Shown: one piece after another, positions 1 through 6,302 of the stretch
How the letters are laid out: each line of letters opens with the position of its first letter
Numbering within the stretch: the first letter of the stretch is position 1
Assembly (NCBI RefSeq): GCF_003334255.1
Contig: NZ_QOWU01000068.1
DNA: 22,032 nt
Strand: one strand, 5' to 3'
DNA from: Escherichia coli
Lineage (GTDB): Bacteria > Pseudomonadota > Gammaproteobacteria > Enterobacterales > Enterobacteriaceae
Made by a program: the position numbers and the translations under genes
Notes under the pieces: generated by a model
Told to the model about the DNA's origin: nothing
Databases searched by the model: none
What the model saw: only the letters and a program-made list of their open reading frames with translations

Positions 1-9
1 ATATCCATA

Positions 10-1473
10 ATGAGTAAAAAGTTTACAATGACACTCCTGTCATCTTCTCTGGCCGGGCTTCTGGTGATGAGTGGTGGGGTGAGTGCGCAGGAAGAAAAAT
101 ACACAGTGCCGTATGCCATAGGTGAAGGTAAATGGGGGAATACCTATGAAGTTGTAAAGACAGGCGGTAATGGTAACTTCAGATACGAAGTAAAAGAGAA
201 AAACGGCAAGAAGAGGTCACTTTTCACATTTGATTCAAAAGGGGATGTAATAATCAATGGCAGTGGCATTACGTACACAATTCATGACGGTGCGCTGAAC
301 GATTTTGCTCAAACAGCTGAGAAAAAAAAGAATGGACAGTCTCAGTCGCACAGAATGACTGATAGCGTTGTTCGTGATGTATATAACAAAGTATACAGTC
401 TGCAGAGAACAAAAATTACAGGTTTCAGCGTCGAAGATGGGGAGAATGGGAAGGTTTCTCTGGGTAGCGATGCGAAAGCCTCTGGTGAGTTCTCAGTAGC
501 TGTTGGTAACGGTGCTAAGGCTACAGAAAAAGCGTCAACATCAGTGGGATCATGGTCTGCAGCACTAGGACGGCAAAGTGTGGCTTTAGGTGTGGGAACA
601 TATGCTTATGCAAATGCATCTACAGCCGCCGGAACAGCTGCTTATGTTGATGGTTCTGCTATTTATGGTACCGCTATAGGTAATTACGCAAAAGTGGATA
701 AAAATGCAACTGAAGGTGTTGCATTAGGAGCCAAAGCAATATCTGCACATAAAAACAGTGTGGCCTTAGGGGCAAACTCCCGAACCACTCGTGATAATGA
801 AGTTTACATTGGTTATGAAGAGGCTTCTGGTAAAGCATATAAAACCCGCACCCTTGGAGGATTGACTGATGGAACTCGCCCATCCGATGCAGCAACTGTT
901 CGTCAGGTTGATCGGGTAAAAGACAGTGTTGAGCAACTGGCTCAGGATACGAATACCCGCCTTGTAGTCGAAGCGAAAAAGTCTCGTGAATATACAGACT
1001 CCAGAACGACAGTTGGTGTGAACCCTGACGGAAAACTTACCCGTGCAGAAGGTGCGACTAAAACTATCGCCGTCAATGATGGTCTCGTTGCTCTGTCTGG
1101 CAGAACAGACCGTATTGATTATGCAGTTGGTAGCGTTGACCGCCGGGTTACTAAAAATACACAGGCTATTCAGTCCAATACTCGCCAGTTGCAGGAGCAT
1201 AATGCACGCCTGAACAGCCAGCAGCGTCAAATTCGTGAGAATCACGAAGAGATGAAGCGTGCAGCAGCACAGAGTGCAGCGCTGGCGGGGCTTTTCCAGC
1301 CGTACAGTGTGGGGAAATTCAACGCCACTGCTGCCCTGGGGGGGTACAGTGATAAACAGGCTGTTGCCGTGGGTGTTGGTTACCGTTTCAACGAGCAGAC
1401 CGCAGCGAAAGCGGGTATTGCAGCGAGTGATGGCGATGTGTCCTACAACATGGGCGTTAACTTCGAGTTTTAA
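10..1473 (+). CDS. Trimeric autotransporter adhesin, YadA/Eib-like (signal peptide, YadA-type head repeats, neck, coiled-coil stalk, C-terminal YadA membrane anchor)
   Basis: 487-aa ORF. N-terminus [29 protein letters not shown] looks like a Sec signal peptide. Repeated head motifs [10 protein letters not shown] / [10 protein letters not shown] / [15 protein letters not shown] / NSVALGANS. Neck-like [25 protein letters not shown]. Heptad-rich stalk ([33 protein letters not shown]). C-terminus [47 protein letters not shown] is a typical YadA anchor ending in F. The signal peptide resembles E. coli Eib proteins as far as I recall (unverified). Confidence 0.8.
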
Positions 1474-1497
1474 TTGCTGACAGTGACATGAAGCATG

Positions 1498-1530
1498 ACG
1501 GCAGGCGTGGAGTTTTGCCTGCCGTTTTTT
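1498..1530 (+). terminator. Rho-independent terminator immediately downstream of the adhesin gene
   Basis: 9-bp perfect stem ACGGCAGGC (1498-1506) / GCCTGCCGT (1517-1525), 10-nt loop, followed by a T-run (TTTTTT to 1530). Begins 25 nt after the adhesin stop codon. Confidence 0.6.
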
Positions 1531-1559
1531 CTCATGTGAGCATGAAACAGGTGACAGCG

Positions 1560-2033
1560 ATGAAAGTGATTCTGGCGACCCGCAACCGTTATCTGGAGTA
1601 TGGCCTGCAGCAGATGCTTGAGGGGTACAGGATAATACTGGCGAGGGAGTTTTTTACACCAGAGAACAGGAAGAGCGTACCGGCACATGATGAGTCATGG
1701 GTGATAATCTGTGATGCCCTCCTTGGCAGGCTGATGTGCTGCATGTTTCAGGGGCGCCGTTATCTTCAGATTGATGCGGAAGATGTTACGGGGCGCCTGG
1801 AGACGTACAGGAAAATCCGGAATGGTGAGTGGGTACATAATACGTATGCGCGACCACTGACGATGTCCGAGATGGTGGTGATGTTTGGATACGTGTACCG
1901 GGAGTCAAAGCCCTGCCATCTTGCCCGTGAAATGGGGATAAACACGAAGACGGTGAACACCTTTCTGTATCTGGGGCTTGGTAAAAACGGTCTTAAGTAC
2001 AGGAGTGTGAAGCACCTGGTTGGACGTGCGTAG
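1560..2033 (+). CDS. Putative small transcriptional regulator with C-terminal LuxR/GerE-type HTH
   Basis: ORF track gives 1488-2033. The start at 1488 lies inside the terminator hairpin and has no SD; ATG at 1560 (MKVILATRN...) has AGGTGA 5 nt upstream. C-terminal segment LTMSEMVVMFGYVYRESKPCHLAREMGINTKTVNTFLYLGLGKNGL matches the spacing of the LuxR/GerE HTH pattern (LT.RE.EVL ... S.KEIA..L.IS.KTV). N-terminal part has no recognisable receiver residues. Family assignment is by eye only. Confidence 0.45.
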   Translation: MKVILATRNRYLEYGLQQMLEGYRIILAREFFTPENRKSVPAHDESWVIICDALLGRLMCCMFQGRRYLQIDAEDVTGRLETYRKIRNGEWVHNTYARPLTMSEMVVMFGYVYRESKPCHLAREMGINTKTVNTFLYLGLGKNGLKYRSVKHLVGRA

Positions 2034-2210
2034 CCGGAATGCATATTCGTGAGTCGGGTAATGAGAGTTGAACGGTGGCAGTGAGAATGGAACAGAAAAA
2101 AATCAGATGCGGAAGGCGGAAATACACAGCGGGTGCGATGTGCTTCATGCTGTTTGTATGGCTGGGTGGTGTGGTGACATTCTGTGTGCTGGCCGCTCTG
2201 ATAATGCAGT

Positions 2211-2236
2211 AAAAAAAGGGGAGCTGGTGACTCCCC
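2211..2236 (-). terminator. Rho-independent terminator for minus-strand transcripts (YkgJ-like gene / serT read-through)
   Basis: Stem GGGGAG (2218-2223) / CTCCCC (2231-2236), 7-nt loop. The plus-strand A7 at 2211-2217 gives a U7 tail on the minus-strand RNA. Confidence 0.55.
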
Positions 2237-2390
2237 GTGCTGATGTCACTGGATAAACCAGTCGTCAGCGGTTTCCCAGGCTTCCGAGTCGGCAAAACTA
2301 GTTGACGTCTAATACCAGAGCCTGTAACTGTTTTTCGTCCATAAATTAACCTTCATTTGATGCTGGATTGAACATATCAAAATCAGGCAA

Positions 2391-2741
2391 TTACACAAAT
2401 CTATGTACAGGCTCTATTTCCGGAAGTCCGTATTTTGCCCGTGCGCGGCTACATGCTTCATTCGCGATGTCATTTTCGCCGGACATTGCGAATTCCCTGC
2501 ATGTGGACGGACGGTTTTTGTAAACAGAGCAATATGCGTTTTCACCCGGAGTTCCCGCCAGAGCGACACATCGGGGCTTTTTCTGATTGGTGCCGCTCAT
2601 ACAGCGATGAAAAGGAGATATTTGCTCAGTGAGAGTGGCCGGGACGTTTCCGCCAGCATCATCGGCTTCAGCCCAGTAAAAAGAGACGCGGAAAAATACA
2701 CAACAGGCACCACACGTCATGCATGGATTGGGGTTATTCAT
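2391..2741 (-). CDS. YkgJ/UPF0153-family putative zinc/iron-chelating protein (CxxCxxCC)
   Basis: 116-aa ORF. N-terminal motif [11 protein letters not shown] plus further Cys (CMSGT, CVALAG, CSVY, CREF) is typical of the YkgJ-type Cys-rich domain. Overlapping plus-strand ORFs 2403-2756 and 2435-2632 have no motifs. Start-codon context is weak. Confidence 0.65.
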
Positions 2742-2837
2742 AATTCATCGGTATAGCGATAAATCGTAAAGAGAACAATGTACCTAGTGTGTATTGAGCT
2801 AAATATACCAATTAGTATACCAAGTGTATACTAAGAG

Positions 2838-2870
2838 CAAAAAAGAAAGGGGCTACCATTTGGTAACCCC
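2838..2870 (-). terminator. serT intrinsic terminator
   Basis: Directly 3' of the tRNA. Minus-strand RNA GGGGUUACC-loop-GGUAGCCCC (includes one U-G wobble) followed by UUUCUUUUUU (plus-strand A-tract 2838-2848). Confidence 0.7.
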
Positions 2871-2879
2871 TTGATTATT

Positions 2880-2967
2880 TGGCGGAAGCGCAGAGATTCG
2901 AACTCTGGAACCCTTTCGGGTCGCCGGTTTTCAAGACCGGTGCCTTCAACCGCTCGGCCACACTTCC
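2880..2967 (-). tRNA. serT: tRNA-Ser (anticodon UGA)
   Basis: Reverse complement reads GGAAGTGTGGCCGAGCGGTTGAAGGCACCGGTCTTGAAAACCGGCGACCCGAAAGGGTTCCAGAGTTCGAATCTCTGCGCTTCCGCCA: 88 nt, long variable arm, anticodon loop CUUGAAA, encoded CCA end. Matches E. coli serT from memory. Confidence 0.95.
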
Positions 2968-2979
2968 GGAATGACGCGC

Positions 2980-3008
2980 ACTATAAACATCCCGATGCGG
3001 CGTGTAAA
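2980..3008 (-). promoter_or_regulatory. serT sigma70 promoter (-35 TTTACA, 17-bp spacer, -10 TATAGT, GC-rich discriminator)
   Basis: On the minus strand: TTTACA (3003-3008), 17-nt spacer, TATAGT (2980-2985), then GCGCGTC before the mature tRNA 5' end at 2967. A GC-rich discriminator is typical of stringently controlled stable-RNA promoters. Confidence 0.55.
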
Positions 3009-3009
3009 C

Positions 3010-3393
3010 CCCTAATTTGTTTGTTTGCCTGAAAAACAGCCAAAAGTGCATTGATAGCGTGAAATAACAGCAGATTGATCATTTCATCACCATGAATTCC
3101 TTCTCTTTTACTCGTTTAGCAACCGGCTAAACATCCCCACCGCCCGGCCAAAAGAAAAATAGGTCCATTTTTATCGCTAAAAGATAAATCCACACAGTTT
3201 GTATTGTTTTGTGCAAAAGTTTCACTACGCTTTATTAACAATACTTTCTGGCGACGTGCGCCAGTGCAGAAGGATGAGCTTTCGTTTTCAGCATCTCACG
3301 TGAAGCGATGGTTTGCCTTGCTACAGGGACGTCGCTTGCCGACCATAAGCGCCCGGTGTCCTGCCGGTGTCGCAAGGAGGAGAGACGTGCGAT
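3010..3393 (+). promoter_or_regulatory. hya operon promoter and 5' leader region (divergent from serT)
   Basis: About 380 bp of AT-rich non-coding sequence between the serT promoter and the hyaA start; SD AAGGAGGA at 3374-3381. Individual promoter and regulator sites are not resolved from sequence alone. Confidence 0.4.
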
Positions 3394-4512
3394 ATGAATA
3401 ACGAGGAAACATTTTACCAGGCCATGCGGCGTCAGGGCGTTACCCGGCGCAGCTTTCTCAAATATTGTAGTCTGGCTGCCACGTCGCTGGGATTAGGCGC
3501 GGGAATGGCACCAAAGATTGCCTGGGCGCTGGAGAACAAACCGCGCATTCCGGTGGTATGGATCCACGGTCTGGAATGCACCTGCTGTACCGAATCTTTT
3601 ATCCGCTCCGCTCACCCACTGGCGAAGGACGTCATCCTTTCCCTGATTTCCCTCGATTACGACGATACTTTGATGGCTGCCGCCGGAACCCAGGCGGAAG
3701 AAGTCTTTGAAGACATCATCACGCAATACAATGGCAAATATATCCTCGCAGTAGAAGGTAATCCGCCGCTGGGCGAGCAGGGGATGTTCTGTATCAGCAG
3801 CGGTCGACCGTTTATTGAGAAACTCAAACGTGCCGCTGCCGGAGCCAGCGCGATTATCGCCTGGGGAACCTGCGCGTCCTGGGGCTGCGTGCAGGCCGCG
3901 CGACCCAATCCGACGCAGGCAACGCCTATCGACAAAGTCATCACCGACAAACCCATTATCAAAGTACCTGGCTGCCCGCCGATCCCGGATGTGATGAGCG
4001 CCATCATTACTTACATGGTGACCTTTGATCGCTTGCCAGATGTCGACAGAATGGGCCGTCCGCTGATGTTCTATGGTCAGCGAATCCACGATAAATGCTA
4101 TCGCCGCGCCCACTTCGACGCCGGAGAGTTCGTCCAGAGTTGGGATGATGACGCTGCCCGCAAAGGTTACTGCCTGTACAAAATGGGCTGCAAAGGGCCT
4201 ACCACCTATAACGCCTGTTCCTCCACACGCTGGAATGATGGCGTTTCTTTCCCAATCCAGTCTGGTCACGGCTGCCTGGGCTGTGCGGAAAATGGTTTCT
4301 GGGATCGCGGTTCGTTCTACAGCCGCGTGGTCGATATTCCGCAAATGGGTACTCATTCCACCGCCGATACCGTCGGTTTAACCGCGCTTGGCGTGGTGGC
4401 AGCGGCTGTTGGTGTGCACGCAGTCGCCAGCGCCGTTGACCAGCGCAGACGTCATAACCAGCAACCTACAGAAACCGAACATCAGCCAGGCAATGAGGAT
4501 AAACAGGCATGA
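3394..4512 (+). CDS. hyaA: Hydrogenase-1 small subunit (NiFe hydrogenase, Tat signal)
   Basis: 372 aa from ATG 3394 (the ORF track starts at an upstream in-frame GTG). Twin-arginine motif RRSFLK, Cys clusters for FeS centres, C-terminal hydrophobic anchor. Matches E. coli HyaA from memory. Confidence 0.95.
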
Positions 4513-6302
4513 GCACTCAGTACGAAACTCAGGGATACACCATCAATAATGCCGGACGCCGCCTGGTGGTCGACCCGATTACGCGCATCGAAGGCCACAT
4601 GCGCTGCGAAGTGAATATTAACGATCAGAATGTGATCACCAATGCCGTCTCCTGCGGCACCATGTTTCGCGGGCTGGAGATCATCCTACAAGGGCGCGAC
4701 CCGCGCGATGCGTGGGCGTTCGTTGAACGTATCTGCGGCGTCTGTACTGGCGTACACGCCCTGGCTTCGGTTTACGCCATCGAAGATGCTATCGGTATTA
4801 AAGTGCCGGACAACGCCAATATCATCCGCAACATTATGCTGGCAACGCTCTGGTGCCACGATCATCTGGTGCACTTCTATCAGCTTGCCGGGATGGACTG
4901 GATCGATGTGTTAGATGCGCTGAAAGCCGACCCGCGGAAAACCTCCGAACTGGCGCAAAGTCTCTCCTCTTGGCCGAAATCATCCCCTGGCTATTTCTTC
5001 GACGTACAAAACCGCCTGAAAAAATTTGTTGAAGGCGGGCAGTTGGGGATCTTCCGCAATGGCTACTGGGGGCACCCGCAGTACAAACTGCCGCCAGAAG
5101 CTAACCTGATGGGCTTTGCCCACTATCTCGAAGCTCTCGATTTCCAGCGTGAAATTGTCAAAATCCACGCGGTCTTTGGCGGTAAAAACCCGCATCCAAA
5201 CTGGATTGTCGGCGGGATGCCTTGCGCCATCAACATTGACGAAAGCGGCGCGGTCGGGGCAGTCAATATGGAACGCCTGAACCTGGTGCAGTCAATTATC
5301 ACCCGCACGGCGGACTTCATTAACAACGTGATGATCCCCGACGCCTTAGCCATCGGTCAGTTCAACAAACCGTGGAGCGAAATCGGCACTGGTCTTTCTG
5401 ATAAATGCGTTCTCAGCTACGGCGCATTCCCGGATATTGCCAACGACTTTGGCGAGAAAAGTCTGCTGATGCCTGGCGGCGCGGTGATTAACGGCGACTT
5501 CAACAATGTGCTGCCAGTGGATTTGGTTGATCCGCAGCAGGTGCAGGAGTTTGTCGACCACGCCTGGTATCGATATCCCAACGATCAGGTCGGGCGTCAT
5601 CCGTTCGATGGCATCACCGACCCGTGGTACAACCCCGGCGATGTCAAAGGCAGCGATACCAACATTCAGCAGCTGAATGAACAGGAACGCTACTCGTGGA
5701 TCAAAGCGCCACGCTGGCGCGGTAACGCGATGGAAGTGGGGCCGCTGGCGCGCACGTTAATCGCTTATCACAAAGGCGATGCTGCGACCGTTGAGTCGGT
5801 CGATCGCATGATGTCGGCGTTGAACCTGCCGCTTTCCGGTATCCAGTCAACGTTAGGCCGCATTTTGTGCCGCGCGCACGAAGCGCAGTGGGCCGCAGGT
5901 AAGTTGCAGTATTTCTTCGACAAGCTGATGACCAACCTGAAAAACGGCAATCTCGCCACTGCTTCCACGGAAAAATGGGAACCTGCAACCTGGCCGACAG
6001 AGTGCCGTGGTGTCGGTTTTACCGAAGCGCCGCGCGGGGCGTTAGGCCACTGGGCCGCCATTCGCGATGGCAAGATTGATCTCTACCAGTGCGTGGTGCC
6101 GACCACCTGGAACGCCAGCCCGCGCGATCCCAAAGGGCAGATTGGCGCTTATGAAGCGGCGCTGATGAACACCAAAATGGCGATCCCCGAGCAACCGCTG
6201 GAGATCCTGCGTACTCTGCACAGCTTTGACCCGTGCCTCGCCTGTTCAACACACGTGCTGGGCGACGACGGTAGCGAGCTGATCTCCGTGCAGGTGCGTT
6301 AA
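4509..6302 (+). CDS. hyaB: Hydrogenase-1 large subunit
   Basis: 597 aa. N-terminal RIEGH and [11 protein letters not shown] motifs and C-terminal DPCLACSTH motif (NiFe ligands). Start overlaps the hyaA stop (ATGA). Confidence 0.95.

Follow-up and report, generated by a model that had tools for sequence, protein, structure and literature searches.

The immunoglobulin-binding adhesin gene eibE of this Escherichia coli prophage is followed by a hairpin with the sequence features of an intrinsic terminator and then by orf-156E, whose product is a compact LuxR-type protein and, by sequence comparison, a full-length homologue of TosE. Similar arrangements recur in other prophages, on plasmids, in a genomic island and in the tos operon, and we favour, with moderate confidence, a model in which the TosE-like regulator would be expressed by low-level read-through of the eibE terminator and would tune the host to the adherent state.

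The window, i.e. the whole stretch of 22,032 nucleotides analysed here (assembly GCF_003334255.1, contig NZ_QOWU01000068.1), holds the right-end cargo of a lambdoid prophage of the P-EibE type integrated beside tRNA-Ser (serT): prophage tail genes lie 5' of eibE on the same strand, and tRNA-Ser and the hya operon lie downstream. The relevant features are the following.

10..1473, plus strand: eibE, encoding a 487-aa immunoglobulin-binding trimeric autotransporter adhesin, YadA-like, right-end cargo of the lambdoid prophage.
1498..1530, plus strand: intrinsic-terminator-like hairpin, with stem 1498-1506 / 1517-1525, loop 1507-1516 and T6 tract 1525-1530.
1549..1554, plus strand: Shine-Dalgarno sequence AGGTGA, read from the sequence, with a 5-nt spacer before the orf-156E ATG.
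1560..2033, plus strand: orf-156E, encoding a 157-aa TosE-family protein (RefSeq CDS WP_001536686.1).
2075..2212, plus strand: ORF-60-like small hydrophobic protein of 45 aa from the GTG at 2075, or 41 aa from the ATG at 2087.
2218..2236, minus strand: convergent terminator found by terminator scan, a GC hairpin followed by T7.

The eibE gene ends with a TAA at 1471-1473; its product carries a YadA anchor at residues 374-487 in the domain search and matches phrog_10464 in PHROGs. The eibE of GenBank record AF151676 has the same length (1464 nt) and also stands directly 5' of orf-156E. Indeed, the pair was already known, having been deposited and named in 2000: the product of the window ORF is 100% identical to ORF-156E of phage P-EibE from E. 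coli ECOR-9 (AF151676). The RefSeq label of this product is still hypothetical protein, and the records AF151091 and AF151674-AF151676 give no function for orf-156. Among the ECOR-9 Eib prophages, ORF-156A, C and D are 68-69% identical to the window ORF, and the gene order and the stem-loop between eib and orf-156 are the same as in the window. Downstream, the ORF-60-like ORF, which carries no RefSeq annotation, shares 66% identity over 35 aa with ORF-60A of P-EibA, matches phrog_9340 (E = 2.3e-14) and is probably the last gene of the cargo block. In P-EibA, P-EibC and P-EibD, orf-60 abuts orf-156, whereas it lies about 40 nt downstream in the window. The block runs from eibE through the intrinsic terminator, orf-156E and the ORF-60-like small membrane protein to the convergent terminator, the latter shutting it off from an oppositely oriented YkgJ-like gene.

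The hairpin behind eibE had been described in an earlier, sequence-only reading as a strong terminator made of a 9-bp GC-rich stem and a T6 tail, and these sequence features are confirmed. The stem begins 24 nt 3' of the eibE stop and consists of a perfect 9 bp, ACGGCAGGC (1498-1506) pairing with GCCTGCCGT (1517-1525), or 11 pairs with the loop-closing G-U pairs included, 7 pairs being G-C. It is the highest-ranked plus-strand site in the terminator scan and, folded by itself, reaches -20.4 kcal/mol (z = -5.8), a stability attained by 0 of 200 shuffles. A stem_loop between eib and orf-156 is also annotated in AF151091, AF151674, AF151675 and AF151676 (2000). Furthermore, the core GGCAGGC/GCCTGCC, a T5-T8 tail and a short gap to the ATG are found in all ten divergent eib loci aligned, so that every sequence feature of an intrinsic terminator is present and conserved, and the hairpin presumably ends most eibE transcripts. 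The stem changes among these loci are solely G-C to G-U or the loss of an outer pair, and the conservation is therefore without compensatory covariation; RNAalifold on the eib loci gives a covariation term of +0.43 with a single compensatory pair, outside the hairpin. A riboswitch or regulated attenuator with an alternative structure was considered and rejected for the lack of covariation and of an Rfam family, the Rfam search of positions 1-3400 returning nothing except the tRNA.

The start of orf-156E was likewise rightly placed by that reading about 30 nt beyond the hairpin with a good Shine-Dalgarno sequence: the ATG at 1560 lies 29 nt past the T-run and 86 nt from the eibE stop. A purine-rich AGG/GGA block occupies the Shine-Dalgarno position in nine of the ten eib alleles, and the O170:H18 allele carries GGGAGAAGGG there. 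The in-frame ATGs at 1488 and 1542 are unlikely starts because indels in the T-run and spacer among the alleles are not multiples of three. On the plus strand of the intergenic region, the promoter scan revealed no sigma-70-like site scoring at least 9/12. The best permissive match (7/12 plus TG, TTGCCT at 1515 and GAGCAT ending at 1543) sits in the 3' arm of the hairpin. This negative counts for little, since eib too shows no upstream promoter in that scan. The idea of a special constraint on the intergenic region was rejected as well: between alleles, its identity (50-80%) does not exceed that of the coding DNA on either side.

The position of the ATG about 30 nt past the terminator, together with the lack of a conserved promoter, makes low-level read-through the most likely route, by which orf-156E would be carried on those few eib transcripts that extend past the hairpin. 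The alternative, which we regard as unlikely while granting it an appreciable chance, is that eib and orf-156E (with orf-60) are independent, uncoupled units: the hairpin would stop nearly all eib transcripts, and orf-156E would be driven from a promoter of its own, weak or of a non-sigma-70 type, situated in the 3' end of eib or across the hairpin. With its 9-11 bp and T6, the hairpin looks strong and might let through a negligible share of transcripts, the 7/12 plus TG match does overlap its 3' arm, and the failure of a simple scan to detect the eib promoter indicates that promoters here can escape detection. Moreover, members of the family that have no upstream adhesin gene must have promoters of their own, and in the UpaB cluster the adhesin and its LuxR-type regulators are separate units (PMC4844996). 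However, transcripts from the candidate promoter would begin inside the Shine-Dalgarno sequence, this promoter is not conserved in the other eib alleles, the distance from T-run to ATG is only about 30 nt at each eib locus, and an equally tight layout recurs with unrelated hairpin sequences. Finally, tosE and tosF are described as members of the tos operon despite the hairpin after tosA (PMC5956150). Searches of the literature brought up neither transcript nor reporter measurements across the eib/orf-156 junction.

That orf-156 is a real gene under purifying selection is established by its dN/dS of 0.08-0.25, computed on alleles that reach synonymous saturation, and by frames that are intact in all ten alleles. 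We give almost no credence to the idea that the ORF is a remnant, in decay or without function, and that the hairpin merely marks the end of the eib cargo. In O157:H7 and O55:H7 prophages the copies have become deleted pseudogenes, and domain searches of the window protein yielded nothing significant in Pfam or NCBIfam, as might be expected of a remnant, but the selection analysis contradicts this idea, as do a confident structure prediction and full-length homologues down to 30% identity. The match to the GerE/LuxR_C profile looked for by the sequence-only reading is thus absent from both databases; across 29 family members, Pfam PF00196 (GerE/LuxR_C) reached at best E = 0.1, in one sequence. 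As the gene is nonetheless real, the rule proposed there, by which the lack of such a match would speak against the ORF, would wrongly reject it. The PHROGs search gave families of unknown function only. Four sub-threshold PDB sequence-profile matches (E of about 0.15-0.2) are all LuxR/GerE proteins, aligned in register on LT..E..V...A..MGI..KTV.

The AlphaFold model of ORF-156E (pLDDT 91.8, pTM 0.87) comprises four strands followed by four C-terminal helices at 102-113, 118-125, 129-142 and 150-153. According to this model, residues ~100-155 form a LuxR-type four-helix HTH domain, with the HTH in helices 2-3, and residues ~1-90 a truncated, four-strand receiver-like alpha/beta domain. In a Foldseek search of the PDB, the top ~37 matches are all NarL/FixJ-class LuxR-HTH regulators, including RcsB, EvgA, DesR, LiaR, FixJ and VpsT, the best being RcsB, EvgA and FixJ, with a probability of 0.99 to RcsB, EvgA and other members of the class; the relatives of ORF-156E in AFDB are annotated as LuxR family. 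The model, Foldseek and the homology to TosE therefore all back the LuxR-type C-terminal HTH that had been recognised from the sequence, and binding of ORF-156E to DNA seems a reasonable expectation. The model also agrees with the view that the N-terminal ~90 residues are not a canonical receiver: the (beta-alpha)5 fold of REC domains is not attained, beta5 being absent, the acidic pair after beta1 is replaced by T7-R8-N9, of which T7 and N9 are invariant, and the conserved Lys after beta5 is lacking. An invariant D52 directly follows beta3, where receivers carry their phospho-acceptor Asp, and is present in TosE too (ILCD); with the rest of the receiver active site absent, it is no proof of phosphorylation. 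Without acidic pair, beta5 and Lys, phosphorylation of ORF-156E is very unlikely. Compared with NarL/FixJ-class regulators such as RcsB, EvgA, FixJ, DesR, LiaR and DosR, ORF-156 is ~50 residues shorter, has four strands only, lacks these three features and any Pfam Response_reg or GerE match, and has no partner kinase gene. It would therefore be at most an orphan, phosphorylation-independent LuxR-type protein.

The closest protein with a reported function is TosE. ORF-156E retrieves it by phmmer with E = 4e-19 against 1.84 billion representatives, the two share 30% identity over 152 aa (BLASTP), and the ORF-156 family HMM scores TosE at 131.7 bits. A further relative, P0046, bridges them, with 39% identity to ORF-156E and 42% to TosE, and the predicted structures of ORF-156E and TosE superpose with a TM-score of 0.91 (AFDB). 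TosE has a similar size (160 aa) and has the T-x-N-x-Y-L-E-x-G and I-x-C-D motifs in common with ORF-156E. The resemblance extends to the loci, for which we confirmed the order tosCBDA-tosE-tosF in CFT073: tosE, too, comes directly after a co-oriented adhesin gene, the two being separated by a hairpin and a T-run. The two systems differ in the nature of the adhesin, a type I-secreted RTX protein for tos and a trimeric autotransporter for eib, in the gap between the genes (120 nt for tosA-tosE, 86 nt for eibE-orf-156E) and in the context, a pathogenicity island of UPEC CFT073 versus a prophage. Furthermore, behind tosE comes another LuxR-type gene, tosF, whereas the next ORF after orf-156E is that of the ORF-60-like peptide, and no tosF counterpart or GerE-type gene is found after orf-156E in the cargo block. 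Both TosE and TosF, encoded in the tosRCBDAEF operon, belong to the LuxR family and are reported to suppress motility (PMC5956150, PMC7545054, PMC10392849). The RNA-seq reads of tosE and tosF were too few to analyse (PMC5956150), which fits a low expression behind a terminator.

The same layout, with a TosE-family gene 80-120 nt behind an adhesin gene and a hairpin between them, is found in Eib prophages, a tail-spike prophage, plasmids, a genomic island and the tos operon. In the last of these, a hairpin and its T-run come after tosA, and the tosE start lies 82 nt later; the plasmid and tail-spike-prophage versions have 82-nt gaps; in the genomic island, the hairpin behind the YadA-anchor gene differs in sequence and carries T5, and the homologue after it is 44% identical. 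The 3' end coding for the adhesin anchor, the hairpin and ORF-156 travel as a single block while the adhesin passenger region is swapped. Together with the recurrence of the layout in these elements, this suggests that the terminator-coupled arrangement is selected and not accidental, and the recurrence behind YadA-anchor genes of prophages, plasmids and an island as well as behind tosA lends comparative support to the adhesin-regulator coupling proposed from the sequence; it also favours an expression of orf-156E by low-level read-through coupled to the adhesin. Some family members have no upstream adhesin gene, their long AT-rich 5' regions could hold promoters of their own, and tblastn detected no YadA-anchor remnants upstream of them. 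The ORF-156 protein is therefore not an obligate partner of an adhesin.

The prophage context offers another route to transcription. In lambdoid phages, Q antitermination overrides intrinsic terminators, and eib, orf-156 and the tail genes, which lie distally in the late region, all point the same way. Upon prophage induction, Q-antiterminated late transcripts running in the same direction would presumably cover orf-156E too. It is nevertheless quite improbable, in our opinion, that orf-156E is expressed mainly on this late transcript, by a Q-modified RNA polymerase that ignores the hairpin, and acts in lytic growth and not in the lysogen. Homologues with the same layout are found on plasmids, in an IS-flanked island and in the tos operon, all without Q antitermination, a host-directed regulator made minutes before lysis would have no obvious use, and Eib is expressed by lysogens in static culture.

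As for the target of ORF-156E, the sequence-only reading had suggested that the regulator could feed back on the adhesin. Spelled out, this would make ORF-156 a dedicated eib regulator that binds the eib promoter, in an autoregulatory loop whose setting depends on how leaky the terminator is. Its tie to YadA-anchor genes is indeed close and long-lived, the expression of Eib is strongly condition-dependent while the Eib literature examined names no regulator, and AutA and AutR, LuxR-type regulators encoded next to upaB, directly control this adhesin gene (PMC4844996). Nonetheless, this feedback found no support and appears improbable: the sole function reported for a homologue is the suppression of motility, the control of tosA being assigned to TosR (PMC5956150, PMC7545054), some family members exist without any adhesin, and the ORF-156 family profile misses HyxR and HyxA (the AutR/AutA cluster) as well as EcpR. 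The AutA/AutR precedent is therefore an analogy and not a homology. A suspicion that the 42-44% relatives P0045 and UTI89 Q1R2W1 might be AutA or AutR was rejected: the UpaB cluster of CFT073 is ipbA-hyxR-hyxA-hyxB, with proteins of 253-264 aa that the family profile misses, and P0045 sits behind another YadA-anchor gene.

By likeness to TosE and TosF, the most likely role of ORF-156E would be to adjust host gene expression to the adherent state, for instance by lowering flagellar motility, a regulation of eib itself being less likely. It fits that Eib is produced mostly when cultures stand still and aggregate, a non-motile lifestyle. Counting against our explanation, TosE acts together with TosF, and no TosF-like gene follows orf-156E. 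Literature searches on ORF-156, on eib regulation and on TosE homologues turned up no functional study of the ORF-156 protein. We put forward tentatively, as a rather doubtful generalization, that the TosE family may consist of dedicated adhesin-coupled lifestyle regulators, compact and phosphorylation-independent, which mobile elements keep behind leaky adhesin terminators for a motile-to-sessile switch. If true, the class would span two unrelated kinds of adhesins, namely trimeric autotransporters and an RTX adhesin. The regulator would then come from a small, constant share of each adhesin transcript, and host motility would be reprogrammed by a prophage as it expresses its own adhesin cargo.

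Parallels exist in other systems. AutA and AutR (HyxA and HyxR, beside upaB) follow the same logic, a small DNA-binding protein being genetically tied to an adhesin gene, although HyxR, HyxA and EcpR have no detectable sequence relationship to the ORF-156 family profile. PapX and MrpJ are further regulators from adhesin clusters that coordinate adhesion with other behaviours and belong to other protein families. AutA and AutR are LuxR/GerE-type proteins without kinase partners, and AutA, AutR and upaB are separate transcription units (PMC4844996). The locus also resembles phage morons: eib is cargo in the late region, with tail-fibre genes on one side and the attachment site on the other, and its annotated stem-loops, one at either end, recall the promoter and terminator flanks of morons. 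However, the one upstream of eib is an AT-rich palindrome and not a GC-rich terminator, and in a moron the terminator is not expected to precede a further conserved gene without a visible promoter, whereas the eib terminator has orf-156 next to it.

The advance is incremental and no new principle, both terminator read-through operons and adhesin-linked regulators being well known. Placement in the TosE family nevertheless gives a testable function to ORF-156, which has stood unexplained beside the Eib genes since 2000, and ties Eib prophages to the reciprocal control of adhesion and motility in E. coli. If confirmed, the arrangement would provide mobile elements with a simple, hard-wired means to set the adhesin-to-regulator expression ratio, and it could account in part for the way in which Eib-positive strains, both Shiga-toxin-producing and commensal, aggregate depending on conditions.

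The window comes from the E. coli chromosome and matches strain UCPROB-002 at 100% identity; in that strain the adhesin gene is preceded, on the same strand, by lambdoid tail genes (J, lom, tail fibre, DUF4376 assembly protein), and the far end of the block adjoins tRNA-Ser and the hya operon. A tblastn comparison with phage records identified the 157-aa protein encoded behind the adhesin gene, at 100% identity, as ORF-156E of phage P-EibE (AF151676; E. coli ECOR-9), and the adhesin is therefore EibE, an immunoglobulin-binding trimeric autotransporter. ORF-156 is labelled "hypothetical" in RefSeq and of "unknown function" in PHROGs.

Features of the junction and block within window bases 1-3000
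10..1473, plus strand: adhesin ORF (eibE), 487 aa
1498-1506 and 1517-1525: stem arms ACGGCAGGC and GCCTGCCGT of a GC-rich hairpin, with a T6 tract at 1525-1530
1549-1554: Shine-Dalgarno AGGTGA
1560..2033, plus strand: ORF-156E, 157 aa
2075..2212, plus strand: small ORF, unannotated
2218-2236, minus strand: terminator, hairpin plus T7
2391..2741, minus strand: YkgJ-family gene
2883-2967, minus strand: tRNA-Ser (serT)

Between the eibE stop and the hairpin lie 24 nt, and a further 29 nt separate the hairpin's T-run from the orf-156E ATG. Folded alone, the hairpin reaches -20.4 kcal/mol (z = -5.8), a stability that none of 200 shuffles attains. The sequence-only reading was therefore accurate, and what it described is not a chance feature. 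Since a stem_loop is annotated between eib and orf-156 in the records of P-EibE, P-EibA, P-EibC and P-EibD, this hairpin has been public as a sequence feature since 2000. At the other end, tRNA-Ser with its own terminator (2847-2967, minus strand) forms the prophage/chromosome junction, and the hyaABCDEF-appCB-appA region is intact from 3393 onward. A MicX-like Rfam match at 2678-2881 (22 bits, where the threshold is 75) is almost certainly due to chance.

A search for GerE/LuxR_C, proposed along with that reading, failed, as neither Pfam nor NCBIfam gave a significant match for ORF-156E or any of 29 family members; to conclude from this, as the reading would have it, that there is no gene would wrongly discard orf-156E, for which other evidence speaks. 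Indeed, the alleles show pairwise dN/dS of 0.08-0.25, including pairs with saturated synonymous sites, and orf-156 is under selection. The family is small, with only 30 matches among 1.84 billion representative proteins, all in E. coli and close relatives, and its conservation is strongest in LTMSEMVVMFGY...EMGI.TKTVNTFLY.G..KNGL. The AlphaFold2 model built from the family alignment (pLDDT 91.8, pTM 0.87) places four beta strands, with helices between them, at residues 2-88 and four helices at residues 102-153, and Foldseek against PDB returned some 37 consecutive full-length NarL/FixJ-class regulators (best E 7e-4, probability 0.99), including RcsB, EvgA, DesR, LiaR, FixJ, VpsT and StyR. Furthermore, all four matches of the sequence profile to PDB chains are LuxR/GerE domains, which align in register but stay below the significance threshold (E about 0.15-0.2), and AFDB relatives include proteins labelled LuxR family by UniProt. 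Most canonical receiver features are absent: although an invariant Asp (D52) ends beta3, the acidic pair after beta1 is replaced by T7-R8-N9, and the model lacks the fifth strand and the conserved lysine. On this model, ORF-156 is a LuxR-type HTH joined to a truncated receiver-like domain that is almost certainly non-phosphorylated; the LuxR-type HTH and non-canonical N-terminus proposed earlier are thus borne out by predicted structure and homology, not by an HMM match.

The link to TosE came from P0050, a family protein matched to ORF-156E by phmmer (30% identity, E = 4e-19), whose contig carries a large repeat protein directly before it and a GerE-domain gene after. In UPEC CFT073, the same DNA holds genes for TolC, ABC and HlyD and for a 1610-aa repeat protein, followed by two small HTH genes; this corresponds to the tosCBDA-tosE-tosF portion of the tosRCBDAEF operon as published (PMC5956150). 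The alignment of ORF-156E with TosE is full-length (30% identity over 152 aa), and TosE scores 131.7 bits with the family HMM, against 9 bits, in the HTH region only, for TosF; EcpR, HyxR and HyxA go undetected. We thus assign ORF-156 to the TosE family, a new point of this analysis. In the literature on them (PMC5956150, PMC7545054, PMC10392849), TosE and TosF are described as LuxR-family members that suppress motility, and TosEF is listed among fliC regulators.

The layout recurs as well. The tosA stop is followed after 14 nt by a hairpin with a T-run, and tosE starts 82 nt beyond the hairpin; three further family members lie behind YadA-anchor genes.

Family members behind YadA-anchor genes (identity to ORF-156E)
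P0045, 44%: IS-flanked island, next to a tos-like operon for type I secretion; 81 nt behind the anchor gene, T5 after a hairpin of unrelated sequence
P0027, 58%: Rep3/CcdAB plasmids; 82 nt behind, related hairpin with degenerate TTTCC tail
P0023, 60%: tail-spike prophage; 82 nt behind, hairpin plus T6

From one eib locus to another, ORF-156 and the intergenic region diverge in parallel with the final 300 nt of eib (50-86% identity) and the passenger part is far more variable (21-59%), so anchor, hairpin and regulator gene travel as one block. Of 5426 complete E. coli genomes, about 70 have the eib-3'/orf-156 junction. The adhesin-hairpin-TosE-like module is common to prophages, plasmids, islands and the tos operon, which is also new here.

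In strain 22KM0354 (L020, 7783-18474), a YadA-anchor adhesin and a TosE-family gene lie in an IS-flanked island with a tos-like TolC/ABC/HlyD/giant-repeat-protein operon immediately downstream, joining the trimeric-autotransporter and RTX-adhesin contexts of the family in a single locus. The Rep3/CcdAB plasmid contigs (L026-L029, ~1-5500) carry in series genes for a 1439-aa trimeric autotransporter, a BamE/OmpA-domain protein, a short YadA-anchor protein and a TosE-family protein; the degenerate TTTCC tail suggests that the plasmid hairpin would terminate more weakly than the prophage version.

Some family members have no adhesin upstream and long, AT-rich 5' regions, such as P0033 beside hpaBC and the Stx1a-phage copies. 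In Stx1a phages (L005, 5001-6254) the intact homologue, without eib, precedes an NleG-like effector ORF; in O157:H7 (phage VT2-Sakai, H0139) and O55:H7 (L006) prophages, also without eib, it is an internally deleted pseudogene. An intermediate member, P0046 (L009 1-3700, GCA_902838015.1; 39% identity to ORF-156E, 42% to TosE), is preceded by calcium-binding repeat (HemolysinCabind) proteins and a lipase-like ORF, and possibly has its own promoter, because the upstream gap holds a hairpin without T-run and then a CATATAAT motif.

Downstream of orf-156E, ORF 2075-2212 (plus strand; alternative start ATG 2087) encodes 41-45 aa with one hydrophobic helix, is homologous to ORF-60A/C/D from the remaining Eib prophages (66% identity over 35 aa), and has a match in phrog_9340 (E = 2e-14); orf-60 abuts orf-156 in P-EibA, P-EibC and P-EibD, and the window ORF begins ~40 nt past the orf-156 stop. 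The minus-strand terminator at 2218-2236 faces the eib/orf-156 block and ends the YkgJ-family (CxxCxxCC) gene, which has a promoter-like site with extended TG at 2802-2830 (minus strand) in a GTATAC-repeat-rich region and is probably prophage cargo too, as YkgJ-like genes recur beside other eib blocks (L019, L032). The "stem_loop" that precedes each eib gene in the GenBank annotation (L001 11880-11912, outside the window) has the form of an AT-rich palindrome, AAATTTATAAAATTAATTTTTAAATTTAT, rather than of a GC-rich terminator, and might serve as an H-NS-type site or bind a regulator. A consensus sigma-70 promoter for eib was not detectable upstream of eib in L001.

At the eib/orf-156 junction the terminator-like hairpin is conserved, as is the short gap with its Shine-Dalgarno, and orf-156 is recurrently linked to adhesin genes. 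Read-through coupling of orf-156 to eib is plausible from this arrangement: most eib transcripts would end at the hairpin, and a minority reading through would give low expression of orf-156 (and orf-60), proportional to eib transcription. Scanning and allele alignment found no conserved sigma-70-like promoter at the junction, but the scan is blind to eib's own promoter too, and an independent promoter driving orf-156 therefore stays a live rival to read-through. Searches there for signs of regulated attenuation turned up neither an alternative RNA structure nor covariation nor an Rfam family. The very low tosE and tosF read counts (PMC5956150) are a circumstantial fit to the read-through scheme. 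Once the prophage is induced, the block would also be covered by Q-antiterminated late transcripts, since these run in the same orientation.

The earlier interpretation stands for the protein and the terminator, and we find nothing in support of its feedback of ORF-156 on eib; a precedent for LuxR-type regulators controlling an autotransporter adhesin exists in AutA/AutR (PMC4844996), which is analogous, not homologous, to ORF-156. Rather, ORF-156 probably tunes host genes, for instance flagellar ones, to the adherent state, with which the production of Eib proteins in static, aggregating cultures fits circumstantially. Tentatively, and with some doubt, TosE-like regulators hard-wired behind adhesin genes on mobile elements might constitute a mobile "adhesin-coupled lifestyle switch".
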